DNA of 53,879 bases, filler included, from Stramenopiles sp. TOSAG23-3 (lineage: Eukaryota): assembly GCA_900128585.1 (NCBI GenBank). It is 4 parts of 4 records of this genome, joined end to end, with 100 filler letters (N's around TTAATTAATTAA, not from the genome) between each part and the next. Parts side by side here need not be neighbours in the genome. Positions count along the whole stretch, not along the records: positions 24,855 to 49,608 come from LT642299.1; 3 more parts are not named here. One strand, 5' to 3'. The translations under genes were made by a program, and so were the position numbers. Shown here piece by piece: positions 24,855 to 49,608 of the stretch; the first letter of the stretch is position 1; each line of letters opens with the position of its first letter. Under the pieces are notes generated by a model. It saw nothing but the letters and a program-made list of their open reading frames with translations, was not told where the DNA came from and made no database searches.

Positions 24855-25081
24855 TACAATGGACTTTTTTTCAAAAAAAAATCGGTACTTTAGCGACCTT
24901 TACAAGTACAAAATGTTTTTTGATAGGTATTTTTCACAATGGGACACAGGGAAAGAAACAAAAAATGACCTACACACCATCTATAATAGACGCCTGCTAA
25001 AAATTAGTGGGTCCGTATCAGTAAAACCACCTTAGTGTACAATAGCATTAAATGACCATTAGGGTTTGGGTTATGGTAAAA

Positions 25082-25399
25082 TTAGCAGGGGATTTTTGTG
25101 AACATTTCTGCATTTAATTTATCGGCATGACCATCTGGAAGAGAAAATCGTTCCGAATATTTATTCTGAAAACACACTTCACAGCATTTGTAAGGATTCG
25201 ACCAAGGTGTACTGTAGAATATATCACCATACACGTAGTTCTCACAGTCTGGACAGTAGAACACATTATGTTTGGCCGCACAATCGCACGAACAGTAATT
25301 GCCATGTCCGTCGTAGTCGTCGATGTGTGTATTGTCACAATCTGGGATATCGCACGATTGTATGCTAAGAGCTTGAAAATTGTATATTACTCTAGTCAT
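25082..25399 (-). CDS. Small Cys-rich, probably Zn-binding viral protein (105 aa)
   Basis: CxxxxC, CxCxC, CPDC and CCEVC motifs; shares a TATA spacer with the divergent HNH gene. Confidence 0.6.
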   Translation of the reverse strand: MTRVIYNFQALSIQSCDIPDCDNTHIDDYDGHGNYCSCDCAAKHNVFYCPDCENYVYGDIFYSTPWSNPYKCCEVCFQNKYSERFSLPDGHADKLNAEMFTKIPC

Positions 25400-25428
25400 A
25401 GTATATATAAAGTGATTTTCTTATAAAA

Positions 25429-26187
25429 ATGAAGTATTGTACCAAATGCAACCAGAGCAAAGCGCTCACGGAGTTTCAGAAGCGATCCAGATCACGCGAT
25501 GGACTCCAATTTCGATGCAAAGTGTGTGTGAAGGCATATGACAAGAAGTACCGTGAAAACAACCGTAAGTATTGTACCAAATGCAACCAGACCAAAGCGC
25601 TCACGGAGTTTAGCAAGCGATCCGATGCACCCGATGGACTTGACTACCGATGCAAAGTGTGTAAGAAGGCAGCTAACAAGAAGTATCGCAAAAACAACCC
25701 GGAAAAAAAACGTGCAGTGCGAGTGTGCTGGCAAAATAACCGGGAGAAATACAATGCATCAGCATTAAAGAGAAGCAAACGCCCGGAAGTCAAGAAACGA
25801 GTCAATGCACGTTGTAGGGAACGTTACCATACCGATCCACAGTACAAACTTAAGCGTATTTTAAGAGGGCGCTTACACTCAGCACTCAAAGGCAAGAACA
25901 AGAGTGCGGCTACCATGACATTGGTTGGTTGTTCCATTACACACCTGAAGGACCATCTCGAAAAACAGTTCCTACCCGGTATGACATGGGAGAACCATGG
26001 ACCAGTATGGCACGTCGATCATATGATGCCATTCGACTCCTTCGACCTGAGCTATCCCGAACAACAGAGACAATGTTGTCATTACACGAACCTCCAGCCA
26101 TTATGGGGACCGGAAAACATAAGCAAAGGCAATAAAATAATATACAACCGTGTGTGGAATGGGTGTAGATGGATAAATAACGTATAA
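25429..26187 (+). CDS. Free-standing HNH-type endonuclease copy 1 (duplicated N-terminal Zn ribbon)
   Basis: 2x KYCTKCNQ.KALTEF..DGL..RCKVC; C-terminal GMTWENHG..WHVDHMMP..HYTNLQPLW..EN.SK as in giant-virus/phage HNH proteins. Confidence 0.8.
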   Translation: MKYCTKCNQSKALTEFQKRSRSRDGLQFRCKVCVKAYDKKYRENNRKYCTKCNQTKALTEFSKRSDAPDGLDYRCKVCKKAANKKYRKNNPEKKRAVRVCWQNNREKYNASALKRSKRPEVKKRVNARCRERYHTDPQYKLKRILRGRLHSALKGKNKSAATMTLVGCSITHLKDHLEKQFLPGMTWENHGPVWHVDHMMPFDSFDLSYPEQQRQCCHYTNLQPLWGPENISKGNKIIYNRVWNGCRWINNV

Positions 26188-26208
26188 AAGTGATTTTTAA
26201 CTGTTAAA

Positions 26209-29200
26209 ATGATTAAACAAATACATTTCGGAATACTGACCGCGGAAGAAATACGCGAACAGTCGGTTGTACATGTTACTGAAAAGAAGACTTTCCAAGA
26301 TGGTGCGTTTCTGACAAACGGGCTACGAGATAGTCGTCTTAAACTGGCCTTTGGTCACATCGATTTACATACTCCGGTGTATCATATATCGTTCGTGAAC
26401 AACATCGTACAATGGCTTCGTTGTATATGCTACAAATGTGGAAGTACGTTGGTAAAGAACGAACCAACGAACATTCAAAAGAACAAATGGTTGCAATACA
26501 TGGCGAAACACGCACAAAACAAATGTCCGGAATGTCACGAAAAACAGCCAAAGTACAGCTGGAACAAGGACAAGGCACAAATCGAAAAGAGCAAGGTCTT
26601 GTACGATATTGACGATGTTCAAACGCACCTGTGTCAGTTGGACGAATCGTTTCTTTCAAAGGTAGACATGTCCCATCCGAAACATATGATTTTGCGATGT
26701 TTGCCTATTCCGCCAACTAGTGTTCGTCCCGCAATTATGCAGGGCGGAGTAATTCGTGGGGAAGATGATTTAACCTACCGATTGATTCAAATTATGCGCT
26801 CAAACGATAAAGTACAGAAGACCATAATTGACAAACGTCCGGAACACATTATTCACAGTGCAAAAGAAAGCTTACAGAATGCTGTGACGGGCTACATTAA
26901 TCATGCGAAAGTCGGTGGAAAACGTAAAGTTTCAAAACGCGAATACACCAGTCTTACCGCACGTTTAAAAACCAAAGAGGGGCGTATTCGTGGAAATCTG
27001 ATGGGAAAACGGGTGGACTTTACTTCGCGTTCGGTCATTACCGGAGACGATACGTTGGGGATGCATGAGATTGGTATTCCAATTAGTGTGGCAAAGAAGC
27101 TCACTGTACCATTAAAAGTTACTGCATACAACAAAAGTATTATTCAGGATTGGTTGACAAAGAAAGACTCTACGATAAAGTTTGTGATACGACCAAATGG
27201 ATCAAGAGTGGATCTTTCGTTTGTGAATCGTACTAATATTGATGTAGACGTGGGGTGGTCAGTGGAAAGGGAATTAATGGATGGTGATATTGTACTGTTC
27301 AACCGTCAGCCGTCGCTTCATAAAATGTCTATTATGGCCCATGAAGTTAAGATTCTTCCATACAGTACGTTTCGCATGAATTTGAGCTGTACTACACCGT
27401 ACAATGCTGACTGTAAGTATTCTTATTTTTTCCTCTCTTACTCAAACCGAAATTAACATTTTTCATACAGTCGATGGTGATGAGATGAACGTTCACGTTC
27501 CACAGACGTTGGAGGCTCAAGCGGAAGCTCGTAATATTATGGCAGTGCAGTATCAATTGGTATCCCCACAGGCCAATAAGCCGGTAATGGGTGTCATTCA
27601 GGATACGATGGTCGGTGCATATTTATTAAGTGCCAACGACGTATCGTTTACAAAGGAAGAAATGATGCAATGTGTCTTTGCGATAAAGAATTGGGATGGT
27701 ATATTCAACCATCAGAAAAAGTATACTGGGAAAGATTTGATAACCTACGTTCTACCGTACATTCATTACAATAACAAAGGCGTCGTAATTGAGAAAGGTA
27801 AATTTTTAAAAGGTCGATTTACAAAGAAGATACTCGGCCGCGGTGATGGATCTCTGATTCATGTGATGTACAATGAGTTGGGACCGAAGACTACCATTGA
27901 GTTTATCAATCGTTTGCAGTGTATCGTTCATAAATTCTTATCGATACAAGGATTTAGTGTTGGAATAAGCGATATGTTATCCGATGTCAATGTAGAGTCC
28001 GAGATGGAAAAAGCCTTTGATGAAATAAGTCTGGATTCGAACGCTACCGAAGCAAAAATTAACCAGCGATTGAATATATGTAGGGATACTATGGCAACCA
28101 TGGTTCAGACGCCGTTAAACGATAGCAATCGGCTGTACACGATGGTTCATAGTGGTAGTAAGGGTTCCAGCATTAATGTATCTCAAATTATGGCCGTTGT
28201 TGGTCAACAGAATTTATGTGGGAAACGCATTCCAAAAACATGGACCGACCGTACGTTACCGCATTTTGAAAAACATAGCAATGGGCCAAAAGAACGAGGT
28301 TTTATTACGCATTCTTACGTTCAAGGGTTGGAGCCCCACGAGGTCTGGATGCATGCTATATCTGGAAGGGAAGGTTTGATTGATACTGCAATTAAAACGA
28401 GTCAAACCGGTTACATTCAGCGTCGTTTTATGAAGGCATTGGAGAACATAAAGATTCAATGGGACGGTAGTGCAAGAAACGCGGACGGCTCCATCATTCA
28501 ATTTCAATACGGCGACGATGGTTTTGATTCCATGCGAGTATGCAATCAGTACATCGACACATGGGACATGTCCATTGCAACAAAGTATGACCTGATGGAT
28601 GATTATGCCTTTCTCCACGATCTAAACAAATGGAGAGACGATGGTAGCAAAGATACGGGTATGTTTATGTTGCCTGTACCAGTGAAACGTTACATTGACA
28701 ATGCGCTCTTGAACTGTCCAAAACGTAAAAAAATCGGTGTGCGTAAAGTGAAGGAATTGATAGACACTCTGTTAAAAGAAATCGATAACCAGATGTTACA
28801 AATACTTATTCGTGCAAAATTGAACCCGTATCGTGTTGTGAAAGAATTAAAGTTATCGCATGTCGCAATGGACGATGTGTTGGCGCACATACGTTCCGAG
28901 TATGCAATTATAAATGCTATTGCCGGGGAATCGGTAGGTGCGTTGGCCGCTCAAAGTATAGGCGAGCCTGCAACACAAATGACCCTGAACACCTTCCATT
29001 TTGCAGGTGTATCGAGTATGAATGTAACGCTAGGTGTACCACGACTGGAAGAGTTGATCAATTGTACGAAAAGCGATCGTATGAAGACCCCATCGACAAT
29101 TTTACAAACGGACGATGCAGACAAGCTTGTGAAACGATTAAGACATATTCGTTTTGAAGATTTGGTGGAGAAAATGTACATCACACGGTCGCCAAACAAA

Positions 29201-30727
29201 GAAGAAGTAAAATGGTACCATTTATTCCCAGATGAAAATTACCACCCGTATGATCCTAGTAAGGAAACTATTGTGGTTCATTTAAAGGAATGGTATGACA
29301 TGGTGTCGGTAAAAGAATGCTTGAACCAAGTCTATATCGAGTATACGGATGGTCCGCACGCGATTATCCATATACAGCTACCGACTGACGAAGATGTGGG
29401 GATTTACTACGAAAATTATATTCGTAAGCAAACTGTACGTGGAATCGAGCATGCGGAAGAGACAATGAAGGTTAAATTGCCCGGTAAAAGCAAATACCAT
29501 GTTGAAACTTCGCTGTCCAATTTAAAAAAGCTCATCGAATTGGAAGGTGTTGATTTCTCCACCATCAACACGAACGATATCCATATGGTCAAGAATATGT
29601 ATGGTATTGAAGCTGCAAGAGCTTCTCTAATACGTGAAATACGAAAGATATTATCTTACTATGGAATATACGTTAATGTTCGACATATCACACTGGCTGT
29701 CGATTGGATAACTTGGATTGGTGCATTGACCCCACTGACCCGTCATGGTATACGACTGGTAGACACATCGCCTTTAAAACGATCTACCTTTGAAGAAGTG
29801 GTAGAGGTCTTCAATCAGGCTGCATGTGCAAAGGAAATAGACTTACTACAGGGCATTTCCGAATGTATTATAACTGGAACACCGCCTAATTTGGGAACGA
29901 ATGTCGTGGGGACTGTAGTGGACAAGGGTATGATAGAACAGTACAAAGTACCATTCCCAGTAGAGGAATTCAAGGAAATGGTAGCGGAGGACGATTTTGA
30001 CGAAATATATGGGAGTTTGAATGAAGTAGATCCATGGGCAGATGAACGTTCAGCTTGGGAAAAGCCACCAATGCTGCAACCCACACAACCATTGACGTTT
30101 AGTATGCAACCATTACAGTTTTCTCAGCCGACGTTTCAACAATTCCCTTCACAAAATGTTATGTTTCCTCAGGCAACACAAAATGTTATGTTTCCTCAGG
30201 CAACACAAAATGTTATGTTTCCTCAGGCTCAGGCAACACAAAATGTTATGTTTCCTCAGGCACAAACACAAAATGTTATGTTTCCTCAGGCACAAACACA
30301 AAATGTTATGTTTCCTCAGGCACAATTAACGATTAAGCGACCAGTCAGTCCATGTAGTCCGGCGTATTCGCCACATTCACCGACAAGTCCAGCGTATTCA
30401 CCGACAAGTCCAGCGTATTCACCTACGAGTCCAGCATACTCACCACAAACGCCTACAAGTCCGGCATACTCGCCTACAAGTCCGGTGTATTCGCCTACAA
30501 GCCCGGTGTATTCACCTACGAGTCCAGCATACTCCCCACATACACCGACAAGTCCGGCATATTCGCCTACGAGTCCAGCATATTCGCCTACGAGCCCGGC
30601 GTACGACCCTATGGACAATGTATCTGACCCATTTGAACCTCAGAGTCCGGGTTACGATCCTTTTGATCCCGTTTCGGATCCCGTTTTGGCTTCTCCTCAA
30701 AAAAAGCGGCGAAAGACTTACTGTTAA
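26209..30727 (+). CDS. RPB1: Viral DNA-directed RNA polymerase largest subunit (RPB1-like); exons 26209-27412 and 27471-30727, ~1486 aa; with CTD heptads and NLS
   Basis: KEGRIRGNLMGKRVDF, FNRQPSLHKMS, YNAD^FDGDEMN, GREGLIDTAIKTSQTGYIQRR, AQSIGEPATQMTLNTFH, GVPRLEELIN; splicing restores the frame exactly. Confidence 0.95.
27413..27470 (+). other. Spliceosomal GT-AG intron (58 nt, phase 1) inside the Phe codon of NADFDGD
   Basis: GAC T|GTAAGT...TTAAC...TTTTCATACAG|TC GAT GGT GAT; contains an in-frame stop at 27454-27456. Confidence 0.93.
30149..30325 (+). repeat. Coding tandem repeat, 6 x (T/S)QNVMFPQA(Q), in the RPB1 linker
   Basis: Near-identical 27-33 nt units CACAAAATGTTATGTTTCCTCAGGC. 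Confidence 0.95.
30347..30610 (+). repeat. Pol II CTD-like repeats: 10 Tyr-units, YSPTSP(A/V) heptads and three YSPx(S/T)PTSPA decamers
   Basis: Translated sequence; synonymous codons vary between units. Confidence 0.95.
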
Positions 30728-31883
30728 CAATGAATAATGGTATAACAAGATCGGCTACCGCTCCAACGACAATGACACACGCCATGTTGTCAAAATTGTC
30801 TCGTGTGACACCAAACATATTTGCCACCAAACCTCCCAATTCATCCGCAATTACGGCAGATAAATTGGAAACGGACATTAAGAGAGCATAGAAAGTTCCT
30901 TCAAGACCCTCTTCGGCATTGTGTGCAACGATTACAATCAATGGCATCATAATCCACATACCGAACAAGGATTGGCCTATGGTATCGAATACGATTAATA
31001 CCAAGCTAGTGGATAGTTTTGTAACGACTAACAGTTGCACCAACGAGCATGCAACCGCACAGTATATGGATACACGCATTAATTTTAAAGGTGAAACGTT
31101 TAGCAGACAGGTTTTGTATATAAAGGTGGATGCAAGAAACGAGTAGCTTCCAGCTATGGTAATCCATTGAAAATCTTCTGGTGTGTAATTTAATTCTTTC
31201 CGTAAAAAGTATGTGTACAATGGACCATAGTTTGGACCTATACTTATTCCAAATATGGCAAATGCAAGAACCCGTTTTTTATAGACTGCTTTAACTAATT
31301 TTTTACACATGTTGTTTGGTGCTCCGGTCTCATTTTTTGCCAATGTCCAAATGCAGCATCCCATGATTAGACATGGCAAAGCAATGAGTTGAAACGTTGG
31401 TTTGTATCCATACATTTCATAAAAGCTCCCACCCAAAGAGGACCCAATGACACTGCCTAGTGCGCGTGATGACCAACATGTGGATTGCGTTTTTCCCTTT
31501 ACAGATTCTTTTTTGGCAAAGTCTACTGTAATGCAGTCTGCACATACGTCTGCAAAACACATAAAGAAGGATACCATGGTCATCGTAGCTATCATGCTAG
31601 TTTTCGTTCCAATTAGATTCGGTAATGTAACATACATGTAAGCAAGTAGTATACCAGAACAGAAAATATACGGTCTTCGTTTCCCCCAATCTGCAACGTG
31701 GTACTTGTCGGAAATTATTCCAAACAATGGTTTAATGCACCATGGTATTGCGATGACACCGTAACTCATGGTCATCTCAACAGGGGTAAATTTCAAGCTG
31801 TCCATCATTTCAAAGTTCATGGCAATACTTCCAAAGGTCATTGCGAACCCAAAGGTAAAATAACACATATACAATGCTAACAT
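30609..31883 (-). CDS. Folate/biopterin transporter (BT1, MFS)
   Basis: IPWCIKPLFGIISD..KRRPY, ADVCAD, EGLEGTFYALLMSVSN; about 12 hydrophobic segments. Confidence 0.85.
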   Translation of the reverse strand: MLALYMCYFTFGFAMTFGSIAMNFEMMDSLKFTPVEMTMSYGVIAIPWCIKPLFGIISDKYHVADWGKRRPYIFCSGILLAYMYVTLPNLIGTKTSMIATMTMVSFFMCFADVCADCITVDFAKKESVKGKTQSTCWSSRALGSVIGSSLGGSFYEMYGYKPTFQLIALPCLIMGCCIWTLAKNETGAPNNMCKKLVKAVYKKRVLAFAIFGISIGPNYGPLYTYFLRKELNYTPEDFQWITIAGSYSFLASTFIYKTCLLNVSPLKLMRVSIYCAVACSLVQLLVVTKLSTSLVLIVFDTIGQSLFGMWIMMPLIVIVAHNAEEGLEGTFYALLMSVSNLSAVIADELGGLVANMFGVTRDNFDNMACVIVVGAVADLVIPLFIVNSKSFAAFFEEKPKRDPKRDQKDRNPDSEVQMGQIHCP

Positions 31884-31911
31884 TTACATATACTTTACTA
31901 GTATTTATAAC

Positions 31912-33735
31912 TTAAAAATCCATGGGTGGTTGGTTTCCAAATTGGCTTCCAACTTGGTTTCCAAACGCCATACTTCTTCTTCTAAATTTATCCTTCTTTT
32001 TTTTGAATAATTCTTTAAGAACAATGTCGTCTAGGTAATCTTTTTGGTCGTAGACAACTGCCTGTTCAATTAAATTCAATACTTGAAGTTGTGTAGCGGA
32101 AGCTATTGGTTTAACACCGCGCATGCACACGACATCTTGAAATGGATTCCTGACGGTGTATGCGGTGTACCACAAGAAGGCAAATACAAAAACTTCTAAA
32201 AACACAAATGCAAGGTATCGTTCTACCGAATCCTTCAATTCATCCAAGTACATGTATGGCATGAGCAATGCGTACGCCATGAGCAGAGAGAACCGAAAAA
32301 GATGTACAATGGTAGGTTCACTGTACGATTTAATAGAAGACATGGATCCCCACGATGCATAGATGGAGTCCCATTTTGCATATATTTCACTTCTTACAGC
32401 TGCTCCTTCATCTTCTCCAAACCCAAGTTTACTCTCTGCTATTTTAGACAATTCATCGACCAGCACAGTCATTACCGTTTCAAACAAATCAAATTGCGAA
32501 TTGTTTTGAACGAGAGAAATCTTATTGTACAACGATATGTCCGTCTCATTTGGAATATGTTCCCTTAGTTTATTCGCCCATTTTTGATAATCTCCCATGA
32601 GCTCACTCTGTTTTGTTTTAGGTTTATCGCACCAACCTTTTTCCCATGCTTGTCGCTCGTCCCATTTCATAAGGCATCTCATTTTTTCTTGGTTCCCGGG
32701 TTCTGGGGCATCATGTAGGTTTGTTATTTCTTCCCATTTTTTCCATTCGGACCAATATATTTTTACCCGTTTGTGTCGTTCACCAAACACAGGATTAAAC
32801 AACCCCCGGAACCACCAATTGCAGTTGCACCCATAACGTTCCGAATATAAATCACCCCAGTAACCACACAACCACCGTTTGTTGCATGGGCACATTTTAA
32901 AGGGAAAAAAGTTCTTTTCCCACTTTTTGTATACTTGGTAGTTTTTGTAAGTTTCCAATTCGTCCCGTGTTGCAACGGTTTCTTTCTTACAAAAAATATG
33001 ATTGATACACCCCTTTTTTAATCGTTGGCCTCGTAATACTACTCTAGCTACCGGTGCAATGACCCCTAATAATTTCCGTACTCTTTCAAACATGAAGCGT
33101 ACATCGTTTTTAAAGACCAACTTCTCGTCCTTTGCTAATTCGTATTTTTCTTTGTCTACGGACATGTGTACTAAAAACATTGCCAAGGCTTTTACGTCGC
33201 CTGACAATGCTTCAAACAAACGAATTTCCTCTTTGTATTTCGCTATACCGCTTCCTAACGTCATCGTTAGCATAAACACCATAACGGCTTGAATGGTAGA
33301 GTATACTTTCTTCATGTACTCCAAGTCTGGGTCGGATGTGTAACAGGACTGTTGTAATCCGTCTACGGATGCGTTTGAGATTAATTTGACGCCTTGTTTC
33401 ACGTACCCTATTTTTCCTTTGACGGGTTCATAAATGTAAAAACTAGAACCACAATTGTCTACCCTAGCGATGAAAGTAGCGGTACCCATAGCGGTCAGAA
33501 GAATGATCCAACATGCCACTTTTGGGTGCAAGAGATATGCAAACCATCGAATAACACAGTCTCCCGTCGCGTTACGTGTCGGTTCCGGGAATCGCAAAAT
33601 CTCTACGGTACATTCCCTATCGCATTCTTTAAGCAAACGTGCTGTCTCCGTCCCTCTACTTTTGCCTCGGTTATCGTTACGCTGTATTGGTGCATACCTA
33701 CCACTGTTGATGGATCCTCTTCTTCTTTTGTTCAT
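31912..33735 (-). CDS. Bestrophin-like (YneE/VCCN-type) membrane channel candidate with a large Trp/Cys-rich insertion
   Basis: TM-VFMLTMTLGSGIAKYKEEIRLFEAL (cf. LxFRTNxAYxRWxEAR), EP..HLFR..LLMAYALLMP, TM followed by RNPF. Confidence 0.5.
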   Translation of the reverse strand: MNKRRRGSINSGRYAPIQRNDNRGKSRGTETARLLKECDRECTVEILRFPEPTRNATGDCVIRWFAYLLHPKVACWIILLTAMGTATFIARVDNCGSSFYIYEPVKGKIGYVKQGVKLISNASVDGLQQSCYTSDPDLEYMKKVYSTIQAVMVFMLTMTLGSGIAKYKEEIRLFEALSGDVKALAMFLVHMSVDKEKYELAKDEKLVFKNDVRFMFERVRKLLGVIAPVARVVLRGQRLKKGCINHIFCKKETVATRDELETYKNYQVYKKWEKNFFPFKMCPCNKRWLCGYWGDLYSERYGCNCNWWFRGLFNPVFGERHKRVKIYWSEWKKWEEITNLHDAPEPGNQEKMRCLMKWDERQAWEKGWCDKPKTKQSELMGDYQKWANKLREHIPNETDISLYNKISLVQNNSQFDLFETVMTVLVDELSKIAESKLGFGEDEGAAVRSEIYAKWDSIYASWGSMSSIKSYSEPTIVHLFRFSLLMAYALLMPYMYLDELKDSVERYLAFVFLEVFVFAFLWYTAYTVRNPFQDVVCMRGVKPIASATQLQVLNLIEQAVVYDQKDYLDDIVLKELFKKKKDKFRRRSMAFGNQVGSQFGNQPPMDF

Positions 33736-33762
33736 TTGTATGATATGATGTAGACCTATATA

Positions 33763-34032
33763 CTAAGAATAGCCAATTTTGTCAATAATTTGTTGACCAA
33801 GTTCCATTGCCCTGCATGTATCGGTTTGTGTGGCTTTGTCTTTTGACAATCGGTCTACTGCCATGTACAGTACACTATGGTTGATGAAGCCTAGATACGG
33901 ATTGAGCGGTGGAAGTATAACTTTGTTTGCCTGTTCCATGGCAATTGTCTTTTGTGTCGTTTTTGTTTTATAATGTAAATATCCTAAGAATGGGAAATGA
34001 TTCCACGCGGTTACGTTAATTCTGTCGTCCAT
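33763..34032 (-). CDS. Hypothetical viral protein (89 aa)
   Basis: Fills the space between co-oriented genes; upstream TATATAAATA. Confidence 0.6.
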   Translation of the reverse strand: MDDRINVTAWNHFPFLGYLHYKTKTTQKTIAMEQANKVILPPLNPYLGFINHSVLYMAVDRLSKDKATQTDTCRAMELGQQIIDKIGYS

Positions 34033-34073
34033 GTATAACTTTGTTATTTGAATAGATATATTTATATATGTAT

Positions 34074-38966: not shown

Positions 38967-39112
38967 ATTCTCGAATTGAGATAGGTCACAAAGGAGGTGA
39001 CTACGCCCGCCGCGCTATTCATCGAATTCATTCCTAATGCATTGAATTGGTGTAATGGTAAGGTGGACAAGAATTTGTACTATATTATACGATAACTATA
39101 TTATACTATGAA

Positions 39113-39550: not shown

Positions 39551-39636
39551 TTTATTGTATAACTTTACCATATATACTCTAAAAATCCAGATTGTTCTTT
39601 AATTTCATGTATATATAATCGTATCTTATAATACAA

Positions 39637-40080
39637 ATGAAATCGTGGATTATCTCTTCTATTTCTAGTATTATCCTCTTTACCACGATATCGTACATAG
39701 GTCATTTTTATTCGTATTGGACCACGCACTCAAAAGAATACACCCGTGCGTCTGTCTTTATTAAGACCGAAACTTGTACCAATCCTCGTGTTCGTTCCCA
39801 GCTCGGAGACTTTAACTTGTGCGATAAAAGTGAGACTATATTATCACAACCTCCTATTATCGCCGCATTGTTTGATGTGGCAAGAGACCTTAGTATATGT
39901 GGAAACAACCGGTGTAGTGTGTTCTACATCGATATTACAAAGAACCTATTCAAAGTTATAGTGGGCGCTGTAGTGTTGGCTATTCTAGGCGTGTGGGCAG
40001 GCTTATTGGACCTAAAACAACTGTGGGAAGAAAGGGTGAAAAATCATTACACTTTACCTACAAAACATAAAATTAAATAG
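39637..40080 (+). CDS. Two-TM membrane protein with a Cys-containing loop (147 aa)
   Basis: Hydrophobic N- and C-terminal segments; TATA upstream. Confidence 0.65.
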   Translation: MKSWIISSISSIILFTTISYIGHFYSYWTTHSKEYTRASVFIKTETCTNPRVRSQLGDFNLCDKSETILSQPPIIAALFDVARDLSICGNNRCSVFYIDITKNLFKVIVGAVVLAILGVWAGLLDLKQLWEERVKNHYTLPTKHKIK

Positions 40081-41566: not shown

Positions 41567-41636
41567 TTTAATACAAACTTAATACTTATATAGTCCGATA
41601 ATAACTTAAATATATTTAAACAGTGATTTTTTGTTT

Positions 41637-42254
41637 CTAATTAATCCATTTAGTACCGGTCCATGTACGATTGTAGATAATTGTATCGCCTTTGCTTATG
41701 TTCTCTGGTCCCCACAATGGCTGGAGGTTGGTGTAATGACAACATTGTCTTTGCTGTTCGGGATAGCTCAGGTCGAATGAGGCCATGGGCATCATGTGAT
41801 CCATATGCCATGTTCCATGGTTCTCCCATGTCATTCCGGGAAGGAACTGCTTTTCCAGATGGTCTTGTAGGTGTGGCATGGAACAACCCAACAATGTCAT
41901 GGTTGGAGCACTCTTGATCTTGCCTTTGAATACCATCCCTACGCGGGAACGTAAATTCCTTGCAAGTCGGAACTGTGGATCGGTACGGTAACGTTCCCTA
42001 CTACGTGCGTTTCTTTGTTTCTTGACTTCCGGGCGTTTTCTGCTCAACCTTTTTTTCGCTTTTTCTTTCTCCCGGTTGTTTTTGTAGTACTTCCTGCTCC
42101 ATGCTTTTTGTTTCTCCGGGTTGTTTTTGCGATACTTCTTGTTAGCTGCCTTCTTACACACTTTGCATTGGGATTTAAGTCCATCGGGTGATGCGGATCG
42201 CTTGCCAAACTCCGTGAGCGCTTTGCTCTGGTTGCATTTGGTACAGGTCTTCAT
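41637..42254 (-). CDS. Free-standing HNH-type endonuclease copy 2
   Basis: CTKC..CKVC Zn ribbon; WHMDHMMP..HYTNLQPLW..EN.SK. Confidence 0.8.
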   Translation of the reverse strand: MKTCTKCNQSKALTEFGKRSASPDGLKSQCKVCKKAANKKYRKNNPEKQKAWSRKYYKNNREKEKAKKRLSRKRPEVKKQRNARSRERYRTDPQFRLARNLRSRVGMVFKGKIKSAPTMTLLGCSMPHLQDHLEKQFLPGMTWENHGTWHMDHMMPMASFDLSYPEQQRQCCHYTNLQPLWGPENISKGDTIIYNRTWTGTKWIN

Positions 42255-42289
42255 TTGAAAGGGTTTAAATCGCTTTTATACACCTCTTT

Positions 42290-42865
42290 CTAGTTCTTTA
42301 TCCACCGTGTACCGGTCCATGTACGATTGTAGATAATCTTATCATGTTTGCTTATGTTCTCCGGTCCCCACAATGGCTGGAGGTTGGTGTAATGACAACA
42401 TTGTCTTTGCTGTTCGGGATCGCTCAAGTAAAAAGAGGCACATGGCATCATGTGATCGACGTGCCATGTTCCATAGTTCTCCCATGTCATTCCGGGAAGG
42501 AACTGTTTAGTCAGATGCTCCTTTAGGTGTGGTATGGAACATCCCAGTAACTTCATGGTACTCGCACTCTTGTTCTTGCCTGTGAGTGCATGACGTAAGC
42601 GTCTACGTAAATTACTTGCAAGTTTGAACTGTGGATCGGTCTTATTGCGTTCCTTGTTACGTGCATTTCTTCGTTTCTTGTATTCCGGGCGTTTTTGCCT
42701 CTTCTTTGCTTGAGCATTGCATTTCTCCCGGTTGTTTTTGTAGTACTTCTTGCCTCTTGCATTATGACACACTTTGCATCGGGATGCGAGTCCATTGGGT
42801 CTATCGGACCGCTTGTAAAACTCCGTGAGCGCTTTGCTCTGGTTGCATCCTTTGCAAAACTTCAT
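42290..42865 (-). CDS. Free-standing HNH-type endonuclease copy 3 (start MKFCKGC)
   Basis: Same architecture; tandem with copy 2; same TATAAAA(A)GCGATT..TTCAAATG leader. Confidence 0.8.
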   Translation of the reverse strand: MKFCKGCNQSKALTEFYKRSDRPNGLASRCKVCHNARGKKYYKNNREKCNAQAKKRQKRPEYKKRRNARNKERNKTDPQFKLASNLRRRLRHALTGKNKSASTMKLLGCSIPHLKEHLTKQFLPGMTWENYGTWHVDHMMPCASFYLSDPEQQRQCCHYTNLQPLWGPENISKHDKIIYNRTWTGTRWIKN

Positions 42866-42922
42866 TTGAAAACTTTTCAATCGCTTTTTATAGTATAAAT
42901 ACACCTCGTTCGCTTTTAAAAT

Positions 42923-43432
42923 ATGTCAATTATAGTTGAGAAATATCAGCAACCTACAAAAGTCGCGTTTTGCGGTAGTATGGGTTCAGGCAAGTCATAT
43001 GCGGCAAACCTACTCTCCCAGAAAACGAATTTACAGGTTATGAGTATTGCCAAGCCGATTAAGGAAATTGTGGCTGAAATGGGAAAAAGTGATAGGGCTT
43101 CGCATATTTTAGTCGGTATGGTCGGCAGGTACGTAGCACCAGATACATGGATCGACAAGCTATTAGATCGTGTTCCAGACGAAGTAATCATCGACGATGT
43201 TCGATTTCCGAATGAGTGCAATAAACTCAAAGAAGCCGGGTTTACACTCATTCATCTCGACGTACCGTGGTACCAACGCTTCGCACGTATTGAAAAACGA
43301 TCCGAGGACCTCAATGACCACATAAGATGGTTCGCACATGAATCCGAGAAAGCTTTGGAAAATTACAATTCCTTCGATTACGTATGCGCAACTGAAGAAG
43401 AAGTGGACAAATTAATCGATAAACTAGTTTAA
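42923..43432 (+). CDS. Deoxynucleoside monophosphate kinase-like P-loop kinase
   Basis: GSMGSGKS; PDTWI; VIIDDVRFPNE; AHESE, typical of phage/giant-virus dNMP kinases. Confidence 0.8.
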   Translation: MSIIVEKYQQPTKVAFCGSMGSGKSYAANLLSQKTNLQVMSIAKPIKEIVAEMGKSDRASHILVGMVGRYVAPDTWIDKLLDRVPDEVIIDDVRFPNECNKLKEAGFTLIHLDVPWYQRFARIEKRSEDLNDHIRWFAHESEKALENYNSFDYVCATEEEVDKLIDKLV

Positions 43433-43463
43433 ATCACTATAATATTTTACATATTGTTTAAAA

Positions 43464-44213
43464 ATGAACCGCGATTTAAAAGAGATTCGCGATAAGAAAC
43501 TATTCCTCGAAACGTTCAAAAATGCACGCACTGAAAACGATAGTAAGTACTTGTACTATCTGCCTGTTCACGGCCCATATAATCCCAAAATAATAGTTGA
43601 AACACCGGGGTCTCGAACTCCAATTGAGTCCGAGTCTGACTGGGTAGACCTTGGTCCATATACCCCCGATATTCCCACGCCTAAAGAAGCAAGGGATGAA
43701 GAGAACCTTAGTGAAGACGACGGCAGTCCAAACCTTGTGTTTTTACCACAATATCGAAACCTGTACCAAGTGCGTAGATGGAATCCTAATGAGCCAACAC
43801 TCATACAGGTAAATGTACCATATGCAAGAAAACCGAAACCAAGCAAAGTAAACTATTCCCCAATTGAGAACGACACAGTACTTCGTTTGAACACTTGCAT
43901 CGTCAGACTTCGTTTGGAGTTAAGCAACTACACTAAAATAAGTGGGGGTACAATGGACTGGTGGGTCGGTGATGGACGGTTTAGTGGCTGGTGGGATCAT
44001 ATGTATTACTGGACGGTGAATAACAGAAATGTGTACACATTACGAACGTTTTACTTAGGCCAGTACTTTGCTATAGCAAAAGACTTACTCATGCTAAAGA
44101 ATGCTTTAAATGACAGCAATCCTAGGTTTAAACTTCAACAAACCAGACAACAACAGATCATGGCGCTGCTTAGGCGTGTAGAGAGTAATTTTGGAATGGT
44201 GTGGAGGCGTTAA
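43464..44213 (+). CDS. Hypothetical viral protein (249 aa)
   Basis: ORF with upstream TATA; 4-nt convergent overlap with the next gene. Confidence 0.7.
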   Translation: MNRDLKEIRDKKLFLETFKNARTENDSKYLYYLPVHGPYNPKIIVETPGSRTPIESESDWVDLGPYTPDIPTPKEARDEENLSEDDGSPNLVFLPQYRNLYQVRRWNPNEPTLIQVNVPYARKPKPSKVNYSPIENDTVLRLNTCIVRLRLELSNYTKISGGTMDWWVGDGRFSGWWDHMYYWTVNNRNVYTLRTFYLGQYFAIAKDLLMLKNALNDSNPRFKLQQTRQQQIMALLRRVESNFGMVWRR

Positions 44214-44743
44214 CGTAGTATGTAACTACCATTTTGTTTAATCAACCACTGAGTACCGTTCCATTTCATATCATGAACAATTTTCTTTCCTTTGCTTAAA
44301 TTTTGACGTTTAAACAATGGTTGCATGTTCGTATAATGATAGCATTTGTACTGCTCCTTGGTTTGTTCCAAGTTAAAATAACAGCATGGCATCATGTGAT
44401 CAATTTCCCACACTTTTCCATAATTGTCCCATGCCATTCCGGGTTGGAATTGCGCTTCTAGGTAGGTTCTCAGATGGTCGCTGCTGCAATTTACGAGTCC
44501 CATGGTAGTATCGCCTTTGTTTTTGCATATTTTTCTCAGCCGACGTCTCAGATTCTTTTGCAATCGAAAGAGTGGGTTTGTTTTCATTTTGTTCTTTTGG
44601 TATTGGTACATTTGCTTGTTCAAACGTTTGCTGTTCTTCTTGTAGTATTTCCGCTGTTTCGCGTTTTTGCACTGTTTGCAGTTGGTGGAACGCTTCGGAA
44701 ATTCACAGCGTAATTTAAAAGTGTTACAGTGTTTACAGTTCAT
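44210..44743 (-). CDS. HNH-type endonuclease copy 4 (more divergent)
   Basis: CKHC..CKQC; GMAWDNYGKVWEIDHMMP..HYTNMQPL..QNLSK. Confidence 0.75.
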   Translation of the reverse strand: MNCKHCNTFKLRCEFPKRSTNCKQCKNAKQRKYYKKNSKRLNKQMYQYQKNKMKTNPLFRLQKNLRRRLRKICKNKGDTTMGLVNCSSDHLRTYLEAQFQPGMAWDNYGKVWEIDHMMPCCYFNLEQTKEQYKCYHYTNMQPLFKRQNLSKGKKIVHDMKWNGTQWLIKQNGSYILR

Positions 44744-44970
44744 TTTTAGAATATTAATATATAAATAGTTTCATTACAAATAAAATGCCAGTTCGTGAGT
44801 ATTCGTGCAGTCCCAGTCAGGTCATAAGTGCTGTCTTTTTCACGTTCACCGATATGATACATGTAGTCTTTCATTATTTAAGAGATGTACCATATGGTAA
44901 TCGTGTTGTAGGGTAGGGTTTATGTACCAAATAATCCCATGTACCAATTGGTACACGTGTTAGAGTTAGG

Positions 44971-45594
44971 TTATAATTCAGTACGTTCGTCAGTACGTTC
45001 GTGGACATAGTTTAGAAATCCTATTTCGCGATTCAACGTTTCCACGCCCACTGTTTTCTCGTCGCTTAATTTCTTGTACTGATTTTGCAATTCTTGTACT
45101 TGTTCGGTAAACATCTGTTCGACTTGCTGAAGCTCTTTTTCGTACGCTTGTTTCCGAACAGTTCGTTCCGTCTCCGATAGCTTTTTTATCTCTTCGATTT
45201 TGGTCTTTTCGTCTTCACTACACAAAGCAATATCATCGAAACATGAATCCTCCAGTGTGTTTTTCACGAAAGTTTCCAGAGCGTTGTAGTCTCGACCACT
45301 CTGGTATGCTTTCCACCCGAAGCCGTCGTTGTACTTTATCGTTGGGTATCCTTTGACTCCTTGTTCTTGGCACAGTTCGACTTCCACGGTACAATCCACT
45401 TCGCCAATAAGAACATTAACGTTTTCTGCCAATTTATCCCATTCTGGTTTAAGTCGTTTGCAATGGCCGCACCATGGAGCACGGAAAGCTACGAGGGCTT
45501 TCTTTCCAGAGGTAGCATCTTTGAAGTCAGATTGTTTTAGGTATACGGTGGCGTGTGCGGTGCAAGCAAGAATAAGTAGAATAATAATTTTCAT
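44971..45594 (-). CDS. Protein disulfide isomerase-like thioredoxin with signal peptide and ER-retention-like RTEL
   Basis: MKIIILLILACTAHA; APWCGHCK; EVDCT..GVKGYPTIKY; coiled tail ending RTEL. Confidence 0.9.
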   Translation of the reverse strand: MKIIILLILACTAHATVYLKQSDFKDATSGKKALVAFRAPWCGHCKRLKPEWDKLAENVNVLIGEVDCTVEVELCQEQGVKGYPTIKYNDGFGWKAYQSGRDYNALETFVKNTLEDSCFDDIALCSEDEKTKIEEIKKLSETERTVRKQAYEKELQQVEQMFTEQVQELQNQYKKLSDEKTVGVETLNREIGFLNYVHERTDERTEL

Positions 45595-45898: not shown

Positions 45899-46306
45899 TC
45901 ATATATATACTTCGACTAGAGAGTCTTCCGCCGCTGCCGTGAGCAACCAAACAAGTGGATTATTATCTTGTGTGTATCGTGATTGTTTTTTTTTTCGCTT
46001 TTGGTACTCCTTGGCTTTACAGTCTTTGCAATGACCCGCTCTGCCATCGCAGTTACTGTTCCTTCTCGGGAATTCCGACATGGGTTTCAGTCTGTCACAG
46101 TGTTTACATACTTTTTGGTCGTTTACATCAATCTTACGTTCCTTCCGTAACTGTACGAGTCTCATCACACGCTTCTTTTCTTGCTCTTTAGTGCATGGTT
46201 TACATAAGTATTTTAAACCATCGCACGTTCCTCGATGACTGTAAAAGTTTGTTTGTGGCAAGGTCTCTTTACAACCGGAACAACACTTGTACTTAATTCT
46301 TGGCAT
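45899..46306 (-). CDS. Double Zn-ribbon protein related to the HNH N-terminal domain, with no nuclease domain
   Basis: CSGC..F..DGLKYLCKPC and CKHC..EF..DGRAGHCKDC. Confidence 0.7.
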   Translation of the reverse strand: MPRIKYKCCSGCKETLPQTNFYSHRGTCDGLKYLCKPCTKEQEKKRVMRLVQLRKERKIDVNDQKVCKHCDRLKPMSEFPRRNSNCDGRAGHCKDCKAKEYQKRKKKQSRYTQDNNPLVWLLTAAAEDSLVEVYI

Positions 46307-46632: not shown

Positions 46633-47028
46633 ATGTCATACGGGACAAAGTATGGTCGCAATAGGATTGAGCGTGCTACACGCATGTACAAAGAGAGACC
46701 ACCTGATGGGATGGTAAAACCAGAGGCAGAAATTAAGAGGTTCAGAGCATTAAGAATAAACGCCCATTTTGGTTATGGTAGGTACGTAGAGGACCTTACA
46801 CGCCCTGAGATTGAGACAAGGGACTTTATTGTGGTTCGATCGCAAAAAACCTCCAACACACACAAGAAATATTACTTTATTGAGTTATTGTCCCCAGAAG
46901 CAATTAAAACCCGTGCAAGAAGTGGATATTTAGGTTACTGTACTTGTAAAGATAGAAATCCAAACTGCAAACACAAACTCGCAATCCGTTTCACAGTAAG
47001 ACAATACATTTACAATTTACGTTATTAA
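46633..47028 (+). CDS. SWIM zinc-finger protein
   Basis: YCTCKDRNPNCKHKLAI (CxC-xn-CxH). Confidence 0.7.
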   Translation: MSYGTKYGRNRIERATRMYKERPPDGMVKPEAEIKRFRALRINAHFGYGRYVEDLTRPEIETRDFIVVRSQKTSNTHKKYYFIELLSPEAIKTRARSGYLGYCTCKDRNPNCKHKLAIRFTVRQYIYNLRY

Positions 47029-47029: not shown

Positions 47030-48148
47030 ATGTTGAAATTTCAATACACCGAACTCCCGCACAATGCATCCGAATTCCACGCAATGGTGCAAATCACCGC
47101 GAATACCGTCATCGACGCGGTAAAACCCCCGGTGTCCATGTTGTACGTCATTGATACCCCTGTGGATGTCTCTCTACTACGCAAGACAATGGAAGAATCG
47201 TTGAAATTCATACGTGCAGTAGACCAAATTTCAATCATAAGCGACAAGGTTATCGTACCATGGACCTACTGTACCGACGTGAACAAGGAGCATGTCTTGA
47301 ATTATATCACGCACACAAAAAGACATCCCGACTTTACAAACCTTATTCTGTACGCGGTAGAGCATTGTAGAGGTCACTCCAACGCGCACATGGCAGTGTT
47401 GACCGACACCCAAGAAGGGAACATCGACGATATTGACATTGTTTCATCGGTACCGGTAAGAATTCACACGATGGGGTACAACAAGCACAACAGTACCTTA
47501 CTGAAAGAGTTGGCAGACTATGGAAAAGGTACTTATAACTTTCTTCAAAGCATGCGAGAGGTCCCCATCGCGTTCGGTAGTGTACTTGGTGCAGCATTCA
47601 GCACAGTATTGCGGGGTGTCACGTTAAGAATAAAAAGTGACACATTGATCACCGACTCCATGAGATACGTTGGCGATGTCTATGCAGACGAGAAAAAACA
47701 AATTCTTATACCGTGTACAATCGACAAAACAATTACATCATCGATGGAACATCACACATTGAAAGTCACGGTAACTGGCATCAACGTCATTTCCAAGCAG
47801 AGAATTGAAATACCACTCGAGAAAACGATTGTTTCTGGATGGGACAACATGCAAGACGAGTCCGTGACAAAACGGTTAGAAGAAATGCGAGTGGTGAACG
47901 AGTTGAGAAAAGCAAGGGAATCGAACGAGACCGTGACGATGTTGCAACGGATAAGCACTTCTCTGGTCACCTTACAAGAAGATATTCGGATGATAATCGA
48001 ACACAACGGATTGACACCATTAATACAACGCACTGAACTGGAATACAAAGATCAACGCGACAATCGGTCGGACGAATTCGTATCCGACTATCGAACCCCC
48101 TTCAGGATGTGGGTGGCGCGCGAACATGAAAATTATGTGAATCAGTAA
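47030..48148 (+). CDS. von Willebrand factor A domain protein (degenerate MIDAS)
   Basis: MLYVID, VLTD, IHTMGY..H..LLKELADYGKGTYNF, FGSVLG..STV, VGDVYADEKK. Confidence 0.7.
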   Translation: MLKFQYTELPHNASEFHAMVQITANTVIDAVKPPVSMLYVIDTPVDVSLLRKTMEESLKFIRAVDQISIISDKVIVPWTYCTDVNKEHVLNYITHTKRHPDFTNLILYAVEHCRGHSNAHMAVLTDTQEGNIDDIDIVSSVPVRIHTMGYNKHNSTLLKELADYGKGTYNFLQSMREVPIAFGSVLGAAFSTVLRGVTLRIKSDTLITDSMRYVGDVYADEKKQILIPCTIDKTITSSMEHHTLKVTVTGINVISKQRIEIPLEKTIVSGWDNMQDESVTKRLEEMRVVNELRKARESNETVTMLQRISTSLVTLQEDIRMIIEHNGLTPLIQRTELEYKDQRDNRSDEFVSDYRTPFRMWVAREHENYVNQ

Positions 48149-48183
48149 TTTCAAAATATAAAGGTAGCGTACGATTATAATAT

Positions 48184-48849
48184 ATGAGTAAATCTTCTAA
48201 TCCGTTTTTAAGTCTATACAACAAGTATTTATGGCAGTATAAGTGCGACGGCGTTGGTGATAATTTTACCGAACAGTTAGCGTTTAAGCTTGTTGGAGAG
48301 TTAACTATGGGCGTTTTACTCTCAAAACCGGCCATGATGTTTTGGGAAGCCATGAACGCATCGATGCAGACTGGAAGTATGGGCGTAAAAGCTGCGGAAG
48401 AAGCCTTATTAGCAGTCACAAAAGCAAAAGAAACGGTATGTGGGTTGGTAACGGCAGAATCGGATGGCTGGTTCGATCTCTTAAAGGGGTACATCACTCC
48501 AGCACGAGTCGCTAGTGAATCTGCAAACGAGTTTTGTTATGTCCAAGAAAAATATGAAATTGAAATGAAAAGAGCGTTGAATATAGCGGTTCGTGAACAG
48601 GTTACAGGAATCTTAAGTTATATTACTACTTTGTATAAAACAGGTGGGCTTGTTCAAACCGTACTCAATTCATCGGTAGCTACTACCATTGGAGCTATTA
48701 GTGTATACCGACACGACCTTGTCTGTGCATTTGCAGCAATGTGGAAATCTTTATGGGATAAGGTTTGGAACGGCGTCCCGCTCGATAGAGTAAAATGTAG
48801 CGAAACCGAAGATTATCTCGTCGGAAACCCACAGTCATTGAAATTATAA
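48184..48849 (+). CDS. Hypothetical viral protein (221 aa)
   Basis: ORF with ATATAAAG upstream. Confidence 0.7.
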   Translation: MSKSSNPFLSLYNKYLWQYKCDGVGDNFTEQLAFKLVGELTMGVLLSKPAMMFWEAMNASMQTGSMGVKAAEEALLAVTKAKETVCGLVTAESDGWFDLLKGYITPARVASESANEFCYVQEKYEIEMKRALNIAVREQVTGILSYITTLYKTGGLVQTVLNSSVATTIGAISVYRHDLVCAFAAMWKSLWDKVWNGVPLDRVKCSETEDYLVGNPQSLKL

Positions 48850-49095
48850 CTCACCTTTCATCATTCCTTCTTTTGTTATGTTGATAAAGTGTTGAAAAAA
48901 CCCCTTGAGCATGCTAATGTCTACCTGTTCACCATAAACGCGAAAGACAACGTAGAATTTTGCTATCAGTATGATAATACACACCTCAACAAACTTAAGT
49001 GTCCAGAGTGTGATCGGGATACAGTAACGAAACTGGTAATGAACGATAACAAAGGTTAAGATAAACGCAATTAACCAACCTAATTCTTCCAACAT
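48844..49095 (-). CDS. Small two-TM membrane protein (83 aa)
   Basis: Two hydrophobic stretches; its TATAAAAG overlaps the HNH copy 5 stop. Confidence 0.6.
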   Translation of the reverse strand: MLEELGWLIAFILTFVIVHYQFRYCIPITLWTLKFVEVCIIILIAKFYVVFRVYGEQVDISMLKGFFQHFINITKEGMMKGEL

Positions 49096-49120
49096 GGTAT
49101 ATATTATATTTTAAATGCTT

Positions 49121-49608
49121 TTATACGTTATTTATCCATCTACACCCATTCCACACACGGTTGTAGATAATTGTATCTTTTTTGCTTATGTTCTCCGAAG
49201 CCCACATGGGCTGTAAGTTGGTGTAATGGAAACACTGTCTCTGTTGTTCCGGATCGGTTAAATCGAAGGACGCACATGGCATCATATGATCGACGTGCCA
49301 TTCGTTTTGGTTTTCCCATGTCATTCCGGGTTGAAATTGACTTTGTAGATGGTCTTTTAGATGTGGTATGGAACAGCCCAACAATGCCATTGTACTCGCA
49401 CTCTTAGTCTTGCCTTTGAGTGCATGCCGTAAGCGTCTACGTAAAATACAAGCAAGTCGGAACTGTGGATCGTTCTTTCTACGTTCCCTTTCCCGTGCAT
49501 TGGCTCGTTTCTTGTATTCTGGGCTTTGTCTGATCTTCCTCGCTGATGCACGTACTTTCTCCCGGTTGTTTTCTCGATACTTCCTTACGGATGCCTTGCA
49601 TTTCTCCC
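49121..49608 (-). CDS. HNH-type endonuclease copy 5, 5'-truncated by the contig end
   Basis: Open frame from the contig edge: EKCKASVRKYRENNREK..DPQFRLACILRRRLRHALKG..WHVDHMMP..HYTNLQPMW; C-terminus identical to copy 1. Confidence 0.8.

Follow-up and report, generated by a model that had tools for sequence, protein, structure and literature searches.

We have analyzed a stretch of 53,879 nucleotides (nt) from the assembly GCA_900128585.1 of Stramenopiles sp. TOSAG23-3, hereafter the window, in which several contigs are strung together by artificial linkers. Positions 24855-49608 are exactly one of these contigs (24.75 kb, LT642299.1), and this contig is clearly viral. We interpret it as a genome piece, assembled with and pasted beside eukaryote contigs, from a large marine protist virus with double-stranded DNA that most likely belongs to the Mirusviricota, and we put the probability of this interpretation at roughly three in four. 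A virus, and not a cell, is indicated because 89.8% of the contig is coding (23 open reading frames, ORFs) with short overlaps between genes, and because of its gene set, the environmental-only homologues of its 1128-aa protein and its synteny with another contig, G004. An initial sequence-only reading had described wall-to-wall genes with convergent overlaps of 4-119 nt, and these were recovered here (overlaps of 119, 8, 4 and 6 nt).

G004 is an IMG/VR contig of 133,808 bp, estimated by CheckV to be 27% complete, which we fetched whole and scanned over its 118 ORFs. Homologues at 39-69% amino acid (aa) identity were found on it for 13 of 25 ORFs or exons of our contig, that is 12 genes. With the exception of the thioredoxin, all of them fall within G004 positions 78132-97655, and their order is that of the window. 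The block common to G004 and two further loci (L001 and L002) runs from a von Willebrand factor A (VWA) protein through a deoxynucleoside monophosphate (dNMP) kinase, p147, p152, a single-stranded DNA-binding protein (SSB), a protein of 1128 aa, p89, p607 and a BT1 transporter to the RNA polymerase gene Rpb1. A terminase large subunit is encoded at G004 6037-7875, with matches to phrog_2 (E 1.7e-14), phrog_7579 (E 4e-11) and the PDB entry 4zni (E 0.017), and with a Pfam match at the very threshold (PF03237, E 1.4e-4, 22.1 bits at a cut-off of 22). Its Walker A motif, PRRFGKS, presumably resembles that of the herpesvirus terminase. This Duplodnaviria-type terminase is present on the syntenic relative only and absent from our contig.

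The same relative carries several signature genes, namely a TATA-binding protein (TBP, E 8.8e-46), two heliorhodopsins (E 2.7e-32 and 9.5e-10) and an M16 peptidase (E 7e-33). None of the three types was seen in the window, and no histone was found among the 118 ORFs of G004. TBP is reported in 59% of mirusviruses and 0% of nucleocytoviruses, heliorhodopsin in 64% versus 5% and M16 peptidase in 60% versus 2% (Gaia et al., PMC10132985). G004 also encodes a C1 peptidase, RING proteins, Ras/Arf GTPases and a thymidylate synthase, together with the informational genes for topoisomerase II (TopoII), PCNA, TFIIS, a Pox_A22-type resolvase and both ribonucleotide reductase (RNR) subunits, while RNApolB and DNApolB were seen neither in the window nor on G004. 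No family of the capsid or A32 of nucleocytoplasmic large DNA viruses (NCLDV) was matched by any of the 118 G004 ORFs (E<=1e-4) or of the 24 window ORFs, all these sequences being fragments. The sequence-only reading had named Mirusviricota as the best match and had noted that the window holds no capsid, terminase or packaging gene. Our Pfam and PHROG scans of the window ORFs agree on the latter point, and the former is supported through G004 by the terminase, TBP, heliorhodopsins and M16 peptidase, although the window itself cannot settle it.

The phylogeny of Rpb1 points in the same direction. The tree was built with FastTree on 61 rows, including the first 36 of 73 other IMG/VR loci (the other 37 were left out). 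The window sequence falls in a clade of 19 rows (support 100) together with G004, L001, L002 and L023, apart from a clade of 32 rows that contains every row with a GVMAG name, which we take to stand for giant-virus metagenome-assembled genomes, and it is not nested in the nucleocytovirus clades. Two unlabelled loci with long branches, L024 and L027, are sister to the window clade.

Among known mirusviruses, the gene content of our contig resembles that of the intron-poor, polymerase-bearing Demutovirales type. Shared with that type (PMC10132985, PMC12768974) are the marine origin, the RNA polymerase subunit A in the window and, on G004, the terminase, TBP, heliorhodopsins, M16 and C1 peptidases, RING proteins, Ras GTPases, TopoII, PCNA, TFIIS, resolvase and RNR. 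Unlike those genomes, ours is a fragment that lacks a virion gene, and the likeness is one of gene content and intron density. The mirusviruses already described from eukaryote assemblies (PMC10827195) are similar in being dense viral contigs with intact genes and of undetermined or episomal status, here again in a protist assembly. They differ in having been found by the major capsid protein (MCP) or other virion markers and in forming clades distinct from those of marine metagenomes, whereas our contig has no virion marker and is nearly identical to strains circulating free in the sea.

The polymerase gene lies on the plus strand in two exons, the first (26209-27412) coding for domains 1-2 (PF04997, E 1e-49; PF00623, E 1.8e-45) and the second (27471-30727) for domains 2-5 and a tail (PF04998, E 1.6e-74; PF05001, E 1.1e-13). 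The spliced product has 1486 aa with Pfam domains 1-5; domain 7 (PF04990) was not detected in the Pfam scan. The closest cellular sequences are the Rpb1 subunits of RNA polymerase II (Pol II), at about 34% identity. The tail had been read from the sequence as a C-terminal domain (CTD), and it holds up as one of the Pol II type, the CTD repeat family PF05001 matching in three stretches with a score of 51 bits where the cut-off is 20.3. At about 30359-30603 there are ten YSP-x-SP units with the consensus YSPTSPA, coded by 21-nt tandem DNA repeats. They are preceded, at 30150-30325, by six tandem ten-residue repeats rich in Q and P (TQNVMFPQAQ-like), and the protein ends in ...PQKKRRKTYC, with KKRRK encoded at 30701-30715. 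Compared with the CTD of eukaryotic Pol II, all ten units keep Tyr1, Ser2, Pro3, Ser5 and Pro6. In contrast with it, position 7 is Ala or Val, the repeats number only about ten, and they stand between the Q/P-rich repeats and the final K-K-R-R-K-T-Y-C. Among relatives whose C-terminus is available, 49 of 58 have three or more heptad-like units and 43 of 58 have at least three K/R among the last 14 residues, the commonest ending being K-[KR]-R-[KR]-T-[FY]. As far as sequences can tell, the Pol II-type tail is a trait of the whole Rpb1 clade. Other repeats rich in Q, P, M or G occur in relatives at the same place, between the polymerase core and the heptads. Our literature searches found no published mention of a Pol II-type CTD with a basic end on a mirusvirus polymerase; they did not cover supplements, which may bear on the point. 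In the text of PMC12768974, taken without its supplement, the terms CTD, heptad and C-terminal domain have 0 occurrences each.

The two exons are separated by a 58-nt phase 1 intron on the plus strand (27413-27470, GTAAGT...TTAAC...CAG), which splits the Phe codon of NADFDGD, the catalytic motif. Removing it from the split TTC codon restores PYNAD-F-DGDEMN, and the GT-AG borders and the restoration of the frame agree with the intron claimed in the sequence-only reading. A DNA contig from the marine metagenome X3 (3961 nt, depth 22.5, 14 differences) joins position 27412 to 27473 with TT between them. It is an intron-less allele (GAC-TTT-GAT) in a strain about 99.5% identical, from which exactly these 58 nt are missing. 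In X1, a run that is a possible source of the assembly, the contig carries the intron and shows 0 differences from the window, while a relative 98% identical to the window Rpb1 (P0032) is a contiguous protein of 1468 aa. Out of the best 66 relatives, 39 have a contiguous NADFDGDEMN, 20 start exactly at the Met of GDEMN and seven are other fragments. In those 20 the frame must therefore be broken within the preceding 17 codons. A break at NADFDGD, the best conserved site, is thus frequent in the clade and differs between closely related strains. With one intron in 24.75 kb, the density is 0.040 per kb, close to the 0.042 per kb of Demutovirales, in which GT-AG introns are equally sparse and their positions vary between close relatives (PMC12768974). 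The polymorphic intron of the window fits the dynamic gain and loss described for mirusviruses in the same paper. For two Rpb1 relatives, P0095 and P0097 (1841 and 1891 aa), the precomputed Pfam annotation includes families of inteins and of LAGLIDADG (PF14528, PF14890), and the polymerase gene of the clade has therefore been invaded by several kinds of selfish element.

A uniform promoter is a third feature of the contig. Of the 23 ORFs, 19 have the motif TATAWA in the stretch from -50 to -11, usually at -26 to -28, against a background of 3.6% of random 40-nt windows (binomial P ~3e-24), so the TATA promoters that had been noticed in the sequence are real. The promoters of G004 are alike, with TATAWA before 82 of its 118 ORFs, a peak at -26/-27 and a background of 6%. 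The G004 terminase gene, unlike most genes of that contig, has no TATAWA within 60 nt before its start, and its promoter may be of a different, perhaps late, kind. By eye, the last ~48 nt upstream of Rpb1 and of a gene for an 83-aa protein are identical (26140-26208 versus 49096-49165). An HNH gene finishes there (its 3' end coding ...YNRVWNGCRWINNV), and the TATAAAAG box of the gene that follows comes immediately after. A mobile HNH cassette may bring its neighbour's promoter or land beside it.

We searched for the same virus in public sequencing runs by 31-mers. A 10-kb probe was present in 20 of 24 listed runs, two small ones among them being flagged as the possible source. Six studies (2014-2025) contributed 12 marine or seawater DNA runs, in which the fraction of 31-mers found was 0.63-0.87; in six RNA runs it was 0.10-0.29. 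Contigs of these runs were compared over 24855-44854. Those of X3 are about 99.5% identical to the window, with indels in intergenic DNA and with deletions of 21 nt at 30375 (one heptad) and of 24 nt at 31930. In the metatranscriptome X15, 17 of 29 contigs were at least 99% identical. Its RNA contigs and those of the oligo-dT library X18 extend over p607, p497, portions of the 1128-aa gene and of Rpb1, and, at the greatest depth (49.9 in X15), the genes for the SSB and p152. These contigs are suggestive of expression of the viral genes. We consider it most likely that the virus is exogenous and currently circulating, because near-identical, variable and apparently expressed strains exist in the sea.

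The limits of the contig are artificial, as had been pointed out before. On each side there is a linker of the form N44-TTAATTAATTAA-N44, at 24755-24854 on the left (N runs 24755-24798 and 24811-24854) and at 49609-49708 on the right (N runs 49609-49652 and 49665-49708), in which TTAATTAATTAA is a six-frame stop string; a third such linker is found at 51745-51844. The abrupt switch noted in the sequence-only reading is thus the end of a contig and not a junction. Both contig ends are repeats, and this is why the assembly stopped where it did. The left end (24855-25096) is a multi-copy repeat with differing continuations from 25095-25099 in all four runs compared and a depth in X3 of 69.9, against about 22 elsewhere; the right end falls inside an HNH copy (49124-49608). 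With a linker on either side and no virus-host junction, integration is not demonstrated, which is what the earlier reading had held. The neighbouring contigs bear ordinary eukaryotic genes, for AMP deaminase (E 7e-243), glycerol-3-phosphate dehydrogenase, a clathrin-adaptor small-chain fragment and an EF-hand protein of 1037 aa, plus a BNR/sialidase-like ORF (50008-51114). This last ORF is on a 2-kb contig whose GC content of 56% is well above that of the other flanking contigs, and which may originate from another organism.

Beside the polymerase gene lies a replication block, made up of a gp2.5-like SSB, a candidate primase-helicase and the dNMP kinase. The gene at 38043-38966 (plus strand) codes for p307, a protein of 307 aa ending in ...PYIEF. 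Its AlphaFold2 (AF2) model, from a 37-row alignment, has a predicted local distance difference test (pLDDT) score of 87.9 and a predicted template modelling (pTM) score of 0.81. Foldseek matches it to T7 gp2.5 (1je5_A, E 2.2e-8, probability 1.0, TM 0.37/0.57) and further to 5odj, 5odk, 5odl, 4klk and 8hw5, matches that include the Enc34 SSB and CP312R of African swine fever virus (ASFV), and many phage and NCLDV SSB homologues were found in BFVD. The predicted structure identifies p307 as an SSB of the gp2.5 type. A capsid or triplex protein, considered for the high RNA depth of the gene, was ruled out by this fold. On the opposite strand, 34074-37460 codes for the 1128-aa conserved core protein, which has 31 homologues at 49-88% identity, all environmental and bearing only automatic gene-call labels as names; the best (P0001, 88%) is on a 104-kb contig. 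No match was found for it in Pfam, PHROGs, NCBIfam or PDB sequences (none at E<=1 in the PDB profile search), and Pfam at E<=5 over 14 members of its family gave nothing consistent, all 14 being without family. Its AF2 model is poor (pLDDT 52.9, weak in the middle of the protein), and fold searches with it in BFVD and VIA-wide gave no clear match (best E 0.017, Z 5.2). On the other hand, the clusters that came up in language-model feature matches in the Atlas (0.90-0.93) were those of DUF5906, Pox_D5 and Prim-Pol, and strings like the A, B and C motifs of ATPases can be read by eye in the family alignment A1. We regard it as a candidate D5-like primase-helicase. An MCP was also considered for this gene and is unsupported, given the low RNA contig depth, the ATPase-like motif pattern and the Atlas leads to primase-helicase families. 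Of the replication and transcription genes that had been claimed for the contig, Rpb1 with domains 1-5 and the gp2.5-like SSB stand, and this third one is held as a candidate only. The divergent intergenic region of 582 nt between the two genes (37461-38042) has a 12-nt tandem repeat at 37930-37967 and is a hot spot of indels between strains, six of them in X3. It may act as a replication origin or be regulatory.

Several observations weigh against our interpretation. The window has no virion gene, be it MCP, portal, triplex, protease or terminase, and the assignment to a phylum rests on a relative whose proteins are 39-69% identical. No HK97-fold MCP was recognised by Pfam among the 118 ORFs of the partial G004. 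Neither the Rpb1 tree nor the comparisons contain a labelled mirusvirus reference sequence. The relatives of the SSB fold and of p497 are most often labelled Nucleocytoviricota. The family PF04451 was not found in G001-G005, but the control genomes gave no match either. RNA libraries, moreover, can hold DNA, and the depth in the possible source run passes from 58 over 26161-41736 to 24 over 42819-44854. Amplification bias, two strains or a mis-join are possible causes of this step, which falls at the HNH pair. In X3 the depth is even (~22.5) across the same pair, and the gene order there agrees with that of the relatives.

Among the other explanations, the one that survives best is that the virus was co-sampled, as virions or within another infected cell or prey, and that the sequenced organism was not infected. 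The same virus is indeed widespread in seawater runs, the runs flagged as its possible source are tiny (11 and 16 million letters, with 10.2 Mb of contigs in 27,183 records), and the window offers neither junction nor host link. Yet in the possible source run the viral contigs reach a considerable word depth (24-58), and we see co-sampling as a real but minority possibility. We find it unlikely that the contig is an endogenous element, integrated in a host chromosome and left unplaced by the assembler. Mirusvirus markers were reported in 1,348 of 1,901 eukaryote assemblies (PMC10827195), integrated copies are known (PMC10827195, PMC12768974), a thraustochytrid episome and integrant are cited in PMC12768974, and here the contig lies in a eukaryote assembly, with neither end resolved and with AMP deaminase, glycerol-3-phosphate dehydrogenase, EF-hand and clathrin adaptor genes on its flanks. 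However, its reading frames are intact and its promoters conserved, and its ends are viral repeats (an HNH copy and the multi-copy repeat) and not host sequence. Strains 99.5% identical that differ in indels, CTD repeat number and presence of the intron occur in metagenomes of six studies, as fits a replicating virus population, and matching contigs are found also in RNA runs. A recently integrated and still active copy would be compatible with this evidence.

A nucleocytovirus with a nuclear phase, to which the Rpb1, the gp2.5-like SSB and possible D5-like primase-helicase (all typical of NCLDV informational modules), the largely NCLDV matches of the SSB in BFVD, the labels around p497 and the lack of a deciding virion gene could also point, is improbable in the face of a syntenic relative that bears a phage/herpes-type terminase, which no nucleocytovirus is known to use, together with TBP, heliorhodopsins and M16 peptidase and no NCLDV capsid or A32 among its ORFs, and of an Rpb1 clade apart from all GVMAG-named rows. 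The likeness to Nucleocytoviricota extends to the SSB fold, found in mimivirus, iridovirus, phaeovirus and ASFV, whereas the spliceosomal-type intron and CTD of the window Rpb1 are points of difference. The informational module is in any case common to mirusviruses and nucleocytoviruses (PMC10132985), and the database labels may predate the phylum Mirusviricota.

With the contig taken as mirusviral, the rest of its gene map is as follows. Five nuclease-bearing HNH genes and one zinc-ribbon-only relative are scattered along it. Copy 1 (25429-26187, plus strand; phrog_1035, E 2.2e-30) is endonuclease VII-like, with a duplicated N-terminal zinc ribbon and a 135-nt tandem repeat, and ends 21 nt before the start of Rpb1. 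Copies 2 (41637-42254; E 1.5e-23), 3 (42290-42865; E 8.8e-24) and the divergent copy 4 (44210-44743; E 1.3e-15) match the same phrog_1035 and lie on the minus strand. Copy 5 (49124-49608), on that strand too, is cut by the contig end and was recognised by tblastn with HNH2 (67% identity, residues 47-205). None of the HNH genes has a match on G004, and the five endonuclease genes are shown to be strain-specific insertions. The zinc-ribbon-only relative (45899-46306, minus strand) matches phrog_5558 (E 1.3e-18) and, in tblastn with HNH1 (E 1e-6), the N-terminal part only, and is possibly a truncated HNH copy. The claim that no frame is decayed agrees with gene lengths similar to those of relatives, apart from this ORF without nuclease half and the one cut at the end. 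A Pfam scan at E<=0.01 found no family for 18 of 24 ORFs and NCBIfam added nothing beyond the Pfam result. The many ORFans reported earlier are therefore many genes without a family, while true orphans they are not, 13 of 25 ORFs or exons having homologues on G004.

Downstream of the polymerase, and overlapping its 3' end by 119 nt, there is a folate/biopterin transporter of the BT1 family of the major facilitator superfamily (30609-31883, minus strand; PF03092, E 6.9e-47; TIGR00788, E 7e-35). It is followed on the same strand by p607 (31912-33735, 607 aa), of no recognised family, 39.7% identical to its G004 homologue and with hydrophobic stretches by eye, and by the conserved small protein p89 (33763-34032, 89 aa), 60% identical to that of G004 and preceded by a TATA motif. 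Beyond the SSB gene come p152 (39113-39571, minus strand, 152 aa, 44.5% identity to G004), which contains Cys and by eye a hydrophobic N-terminus and is possibly secreted, and the conserved p147 (39637-40080, plus strand, 147 aa, 64.8%), with hydrophobic stretches by eye and possibly a membrane protein. The conserved p497 (40073-41566, minus strand, 497 aa) is 47% identical to the proteins of L002-L004. Its Atlas clusters at 0.96-0.98 are unnamed viral families, HipA_2 being a weak match (0.81), and a D-x-H-x-x-N string resembling a kinase catalytic loop can be seen by eye, a lead towards a possible atypical kinase. The dNMP kinase is at 42923-43432 (plus strand; phrog_139, E 5.1e-26; AAA_18, E 1.4e-7), followed by a 249-aa protein (43464-44213, plus strand) for which neither a family nor, among the fetched relatives, a homologue was found. 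The thioredoxin/PDI-domain protein (44971-45594, minus strand) has a hydrophobic N-terminus by eye and is 59% identical to that of G004 (PF00085, E 1.1e-20; TIGR01130, E 7e-27). Near the right end, the plus strand codes for proteins of 131 aa (46633-47028, no family), 372 aa (47030-48148), 38.8% identical to a G004 ORF with a VWA domain (PF00092, E 7.5e-10), and 221 aa (48184-48849, no family), and the minus strand for the conserved small protein of 83 aa (48844-49095), 69.9% identical to G004 and with a TATA motif at -30. At the opposite end, an ORF of 99 aa (25127-25426, plus strand) without family or TATA motif is a doubtful gene.

Two large ORFs of G004 may be mentioned. One of 1522 aa, rich in Cys (28039-32607), was considered as an MCP and rejected, its weak matches being plastocyanin/TNFR-like and to a phage tail-fibre connector; by its sequence it is more likely a surface protein. 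The other (44897-56866) codes for an RCC1-repeat protein of 3989 aa. The G004 ORFs of no known family gave no match to herpes or phage families in Pfam at E<=5.

The intron, the CTD, NLS-like (nuclear localization signal-like) basic runs and the TATA promoters had been taken together as pointing to nuclear replication. All of these elements are real in the sequence, the basic runs being found in Rpb1 (at its C-terminus), p607, p497 and the HNH proteins, while the nuclear phase itself stays an inference. In such a scheme, a viral TBP, as seen on G004, would act with the viral polymerase at the TATA promoters inside the nucleus. The CTD would be phosphorylated by host kinases and would recruit host capping, splicing and 3'-end factors, the heptads and the K/R-rich, import-like end plugging the viral enzyme into that machinery. 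The polymerase mRNA would be spliced by the host spliceosome, which would require at least an early nuclear step. The short intron in NADFDGD could behave as a mobile element, with 20 of 66 relatives split within the same 17 codons and a polymorphism between strains 99.5% identical, and its spread may be aided by the free-standing HNH gene 21 nt upstream of the polymerase gene, a spliceosomal-intron analogue of the collaborative homing of phages. We advance only tentatively the idea that in this clade the polymerase-bearing mirusviruses use a Pol II mimic of their own making for transcription in the host nucleus and that the NADFDGD intron is mobile, perhaps helped by HNH. Two points speak against it. 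The RNA contigs (X15, X18) leave the intron site uncovered, so that splicing is predicted from sequence, and the polymerase-bearing demutoviruses have been inferred to replicate partly or wholly in the cytoplasm (PMC12768974), whereas the intron and CTD of the window argue for a nuclear step. If true, a nuclear Pol II mimic would contradict that published inference for viruses of this type.

Mirusvirus sequences in eukaryote assemblies (PMC10827195) and sparse, variable GT-AG introns with homing endonucleases in mirusviruses (PMC12768974) have already been published. Worth following up here are the tail of the polymerase, the intron in its catalytic motif, whose presence varies between strains, and the TATA promoter at a fixed distance. 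Mirusviruses are known almost only from metagenomes, and where they replicate and in which hosts has yet to be settled. Present in the assembly of a named eukaryote and 99.5% identical to seawater strains, the fragment provides a candidate host to test. The Pol II-type tail, the catalytic-motif intron and the uniform TATA promoter about 26 nt upstream all bear on whether the polymerase-bearing mirusviruses use the nucleus or the cytoplasm, and these three features make that question directly testable.

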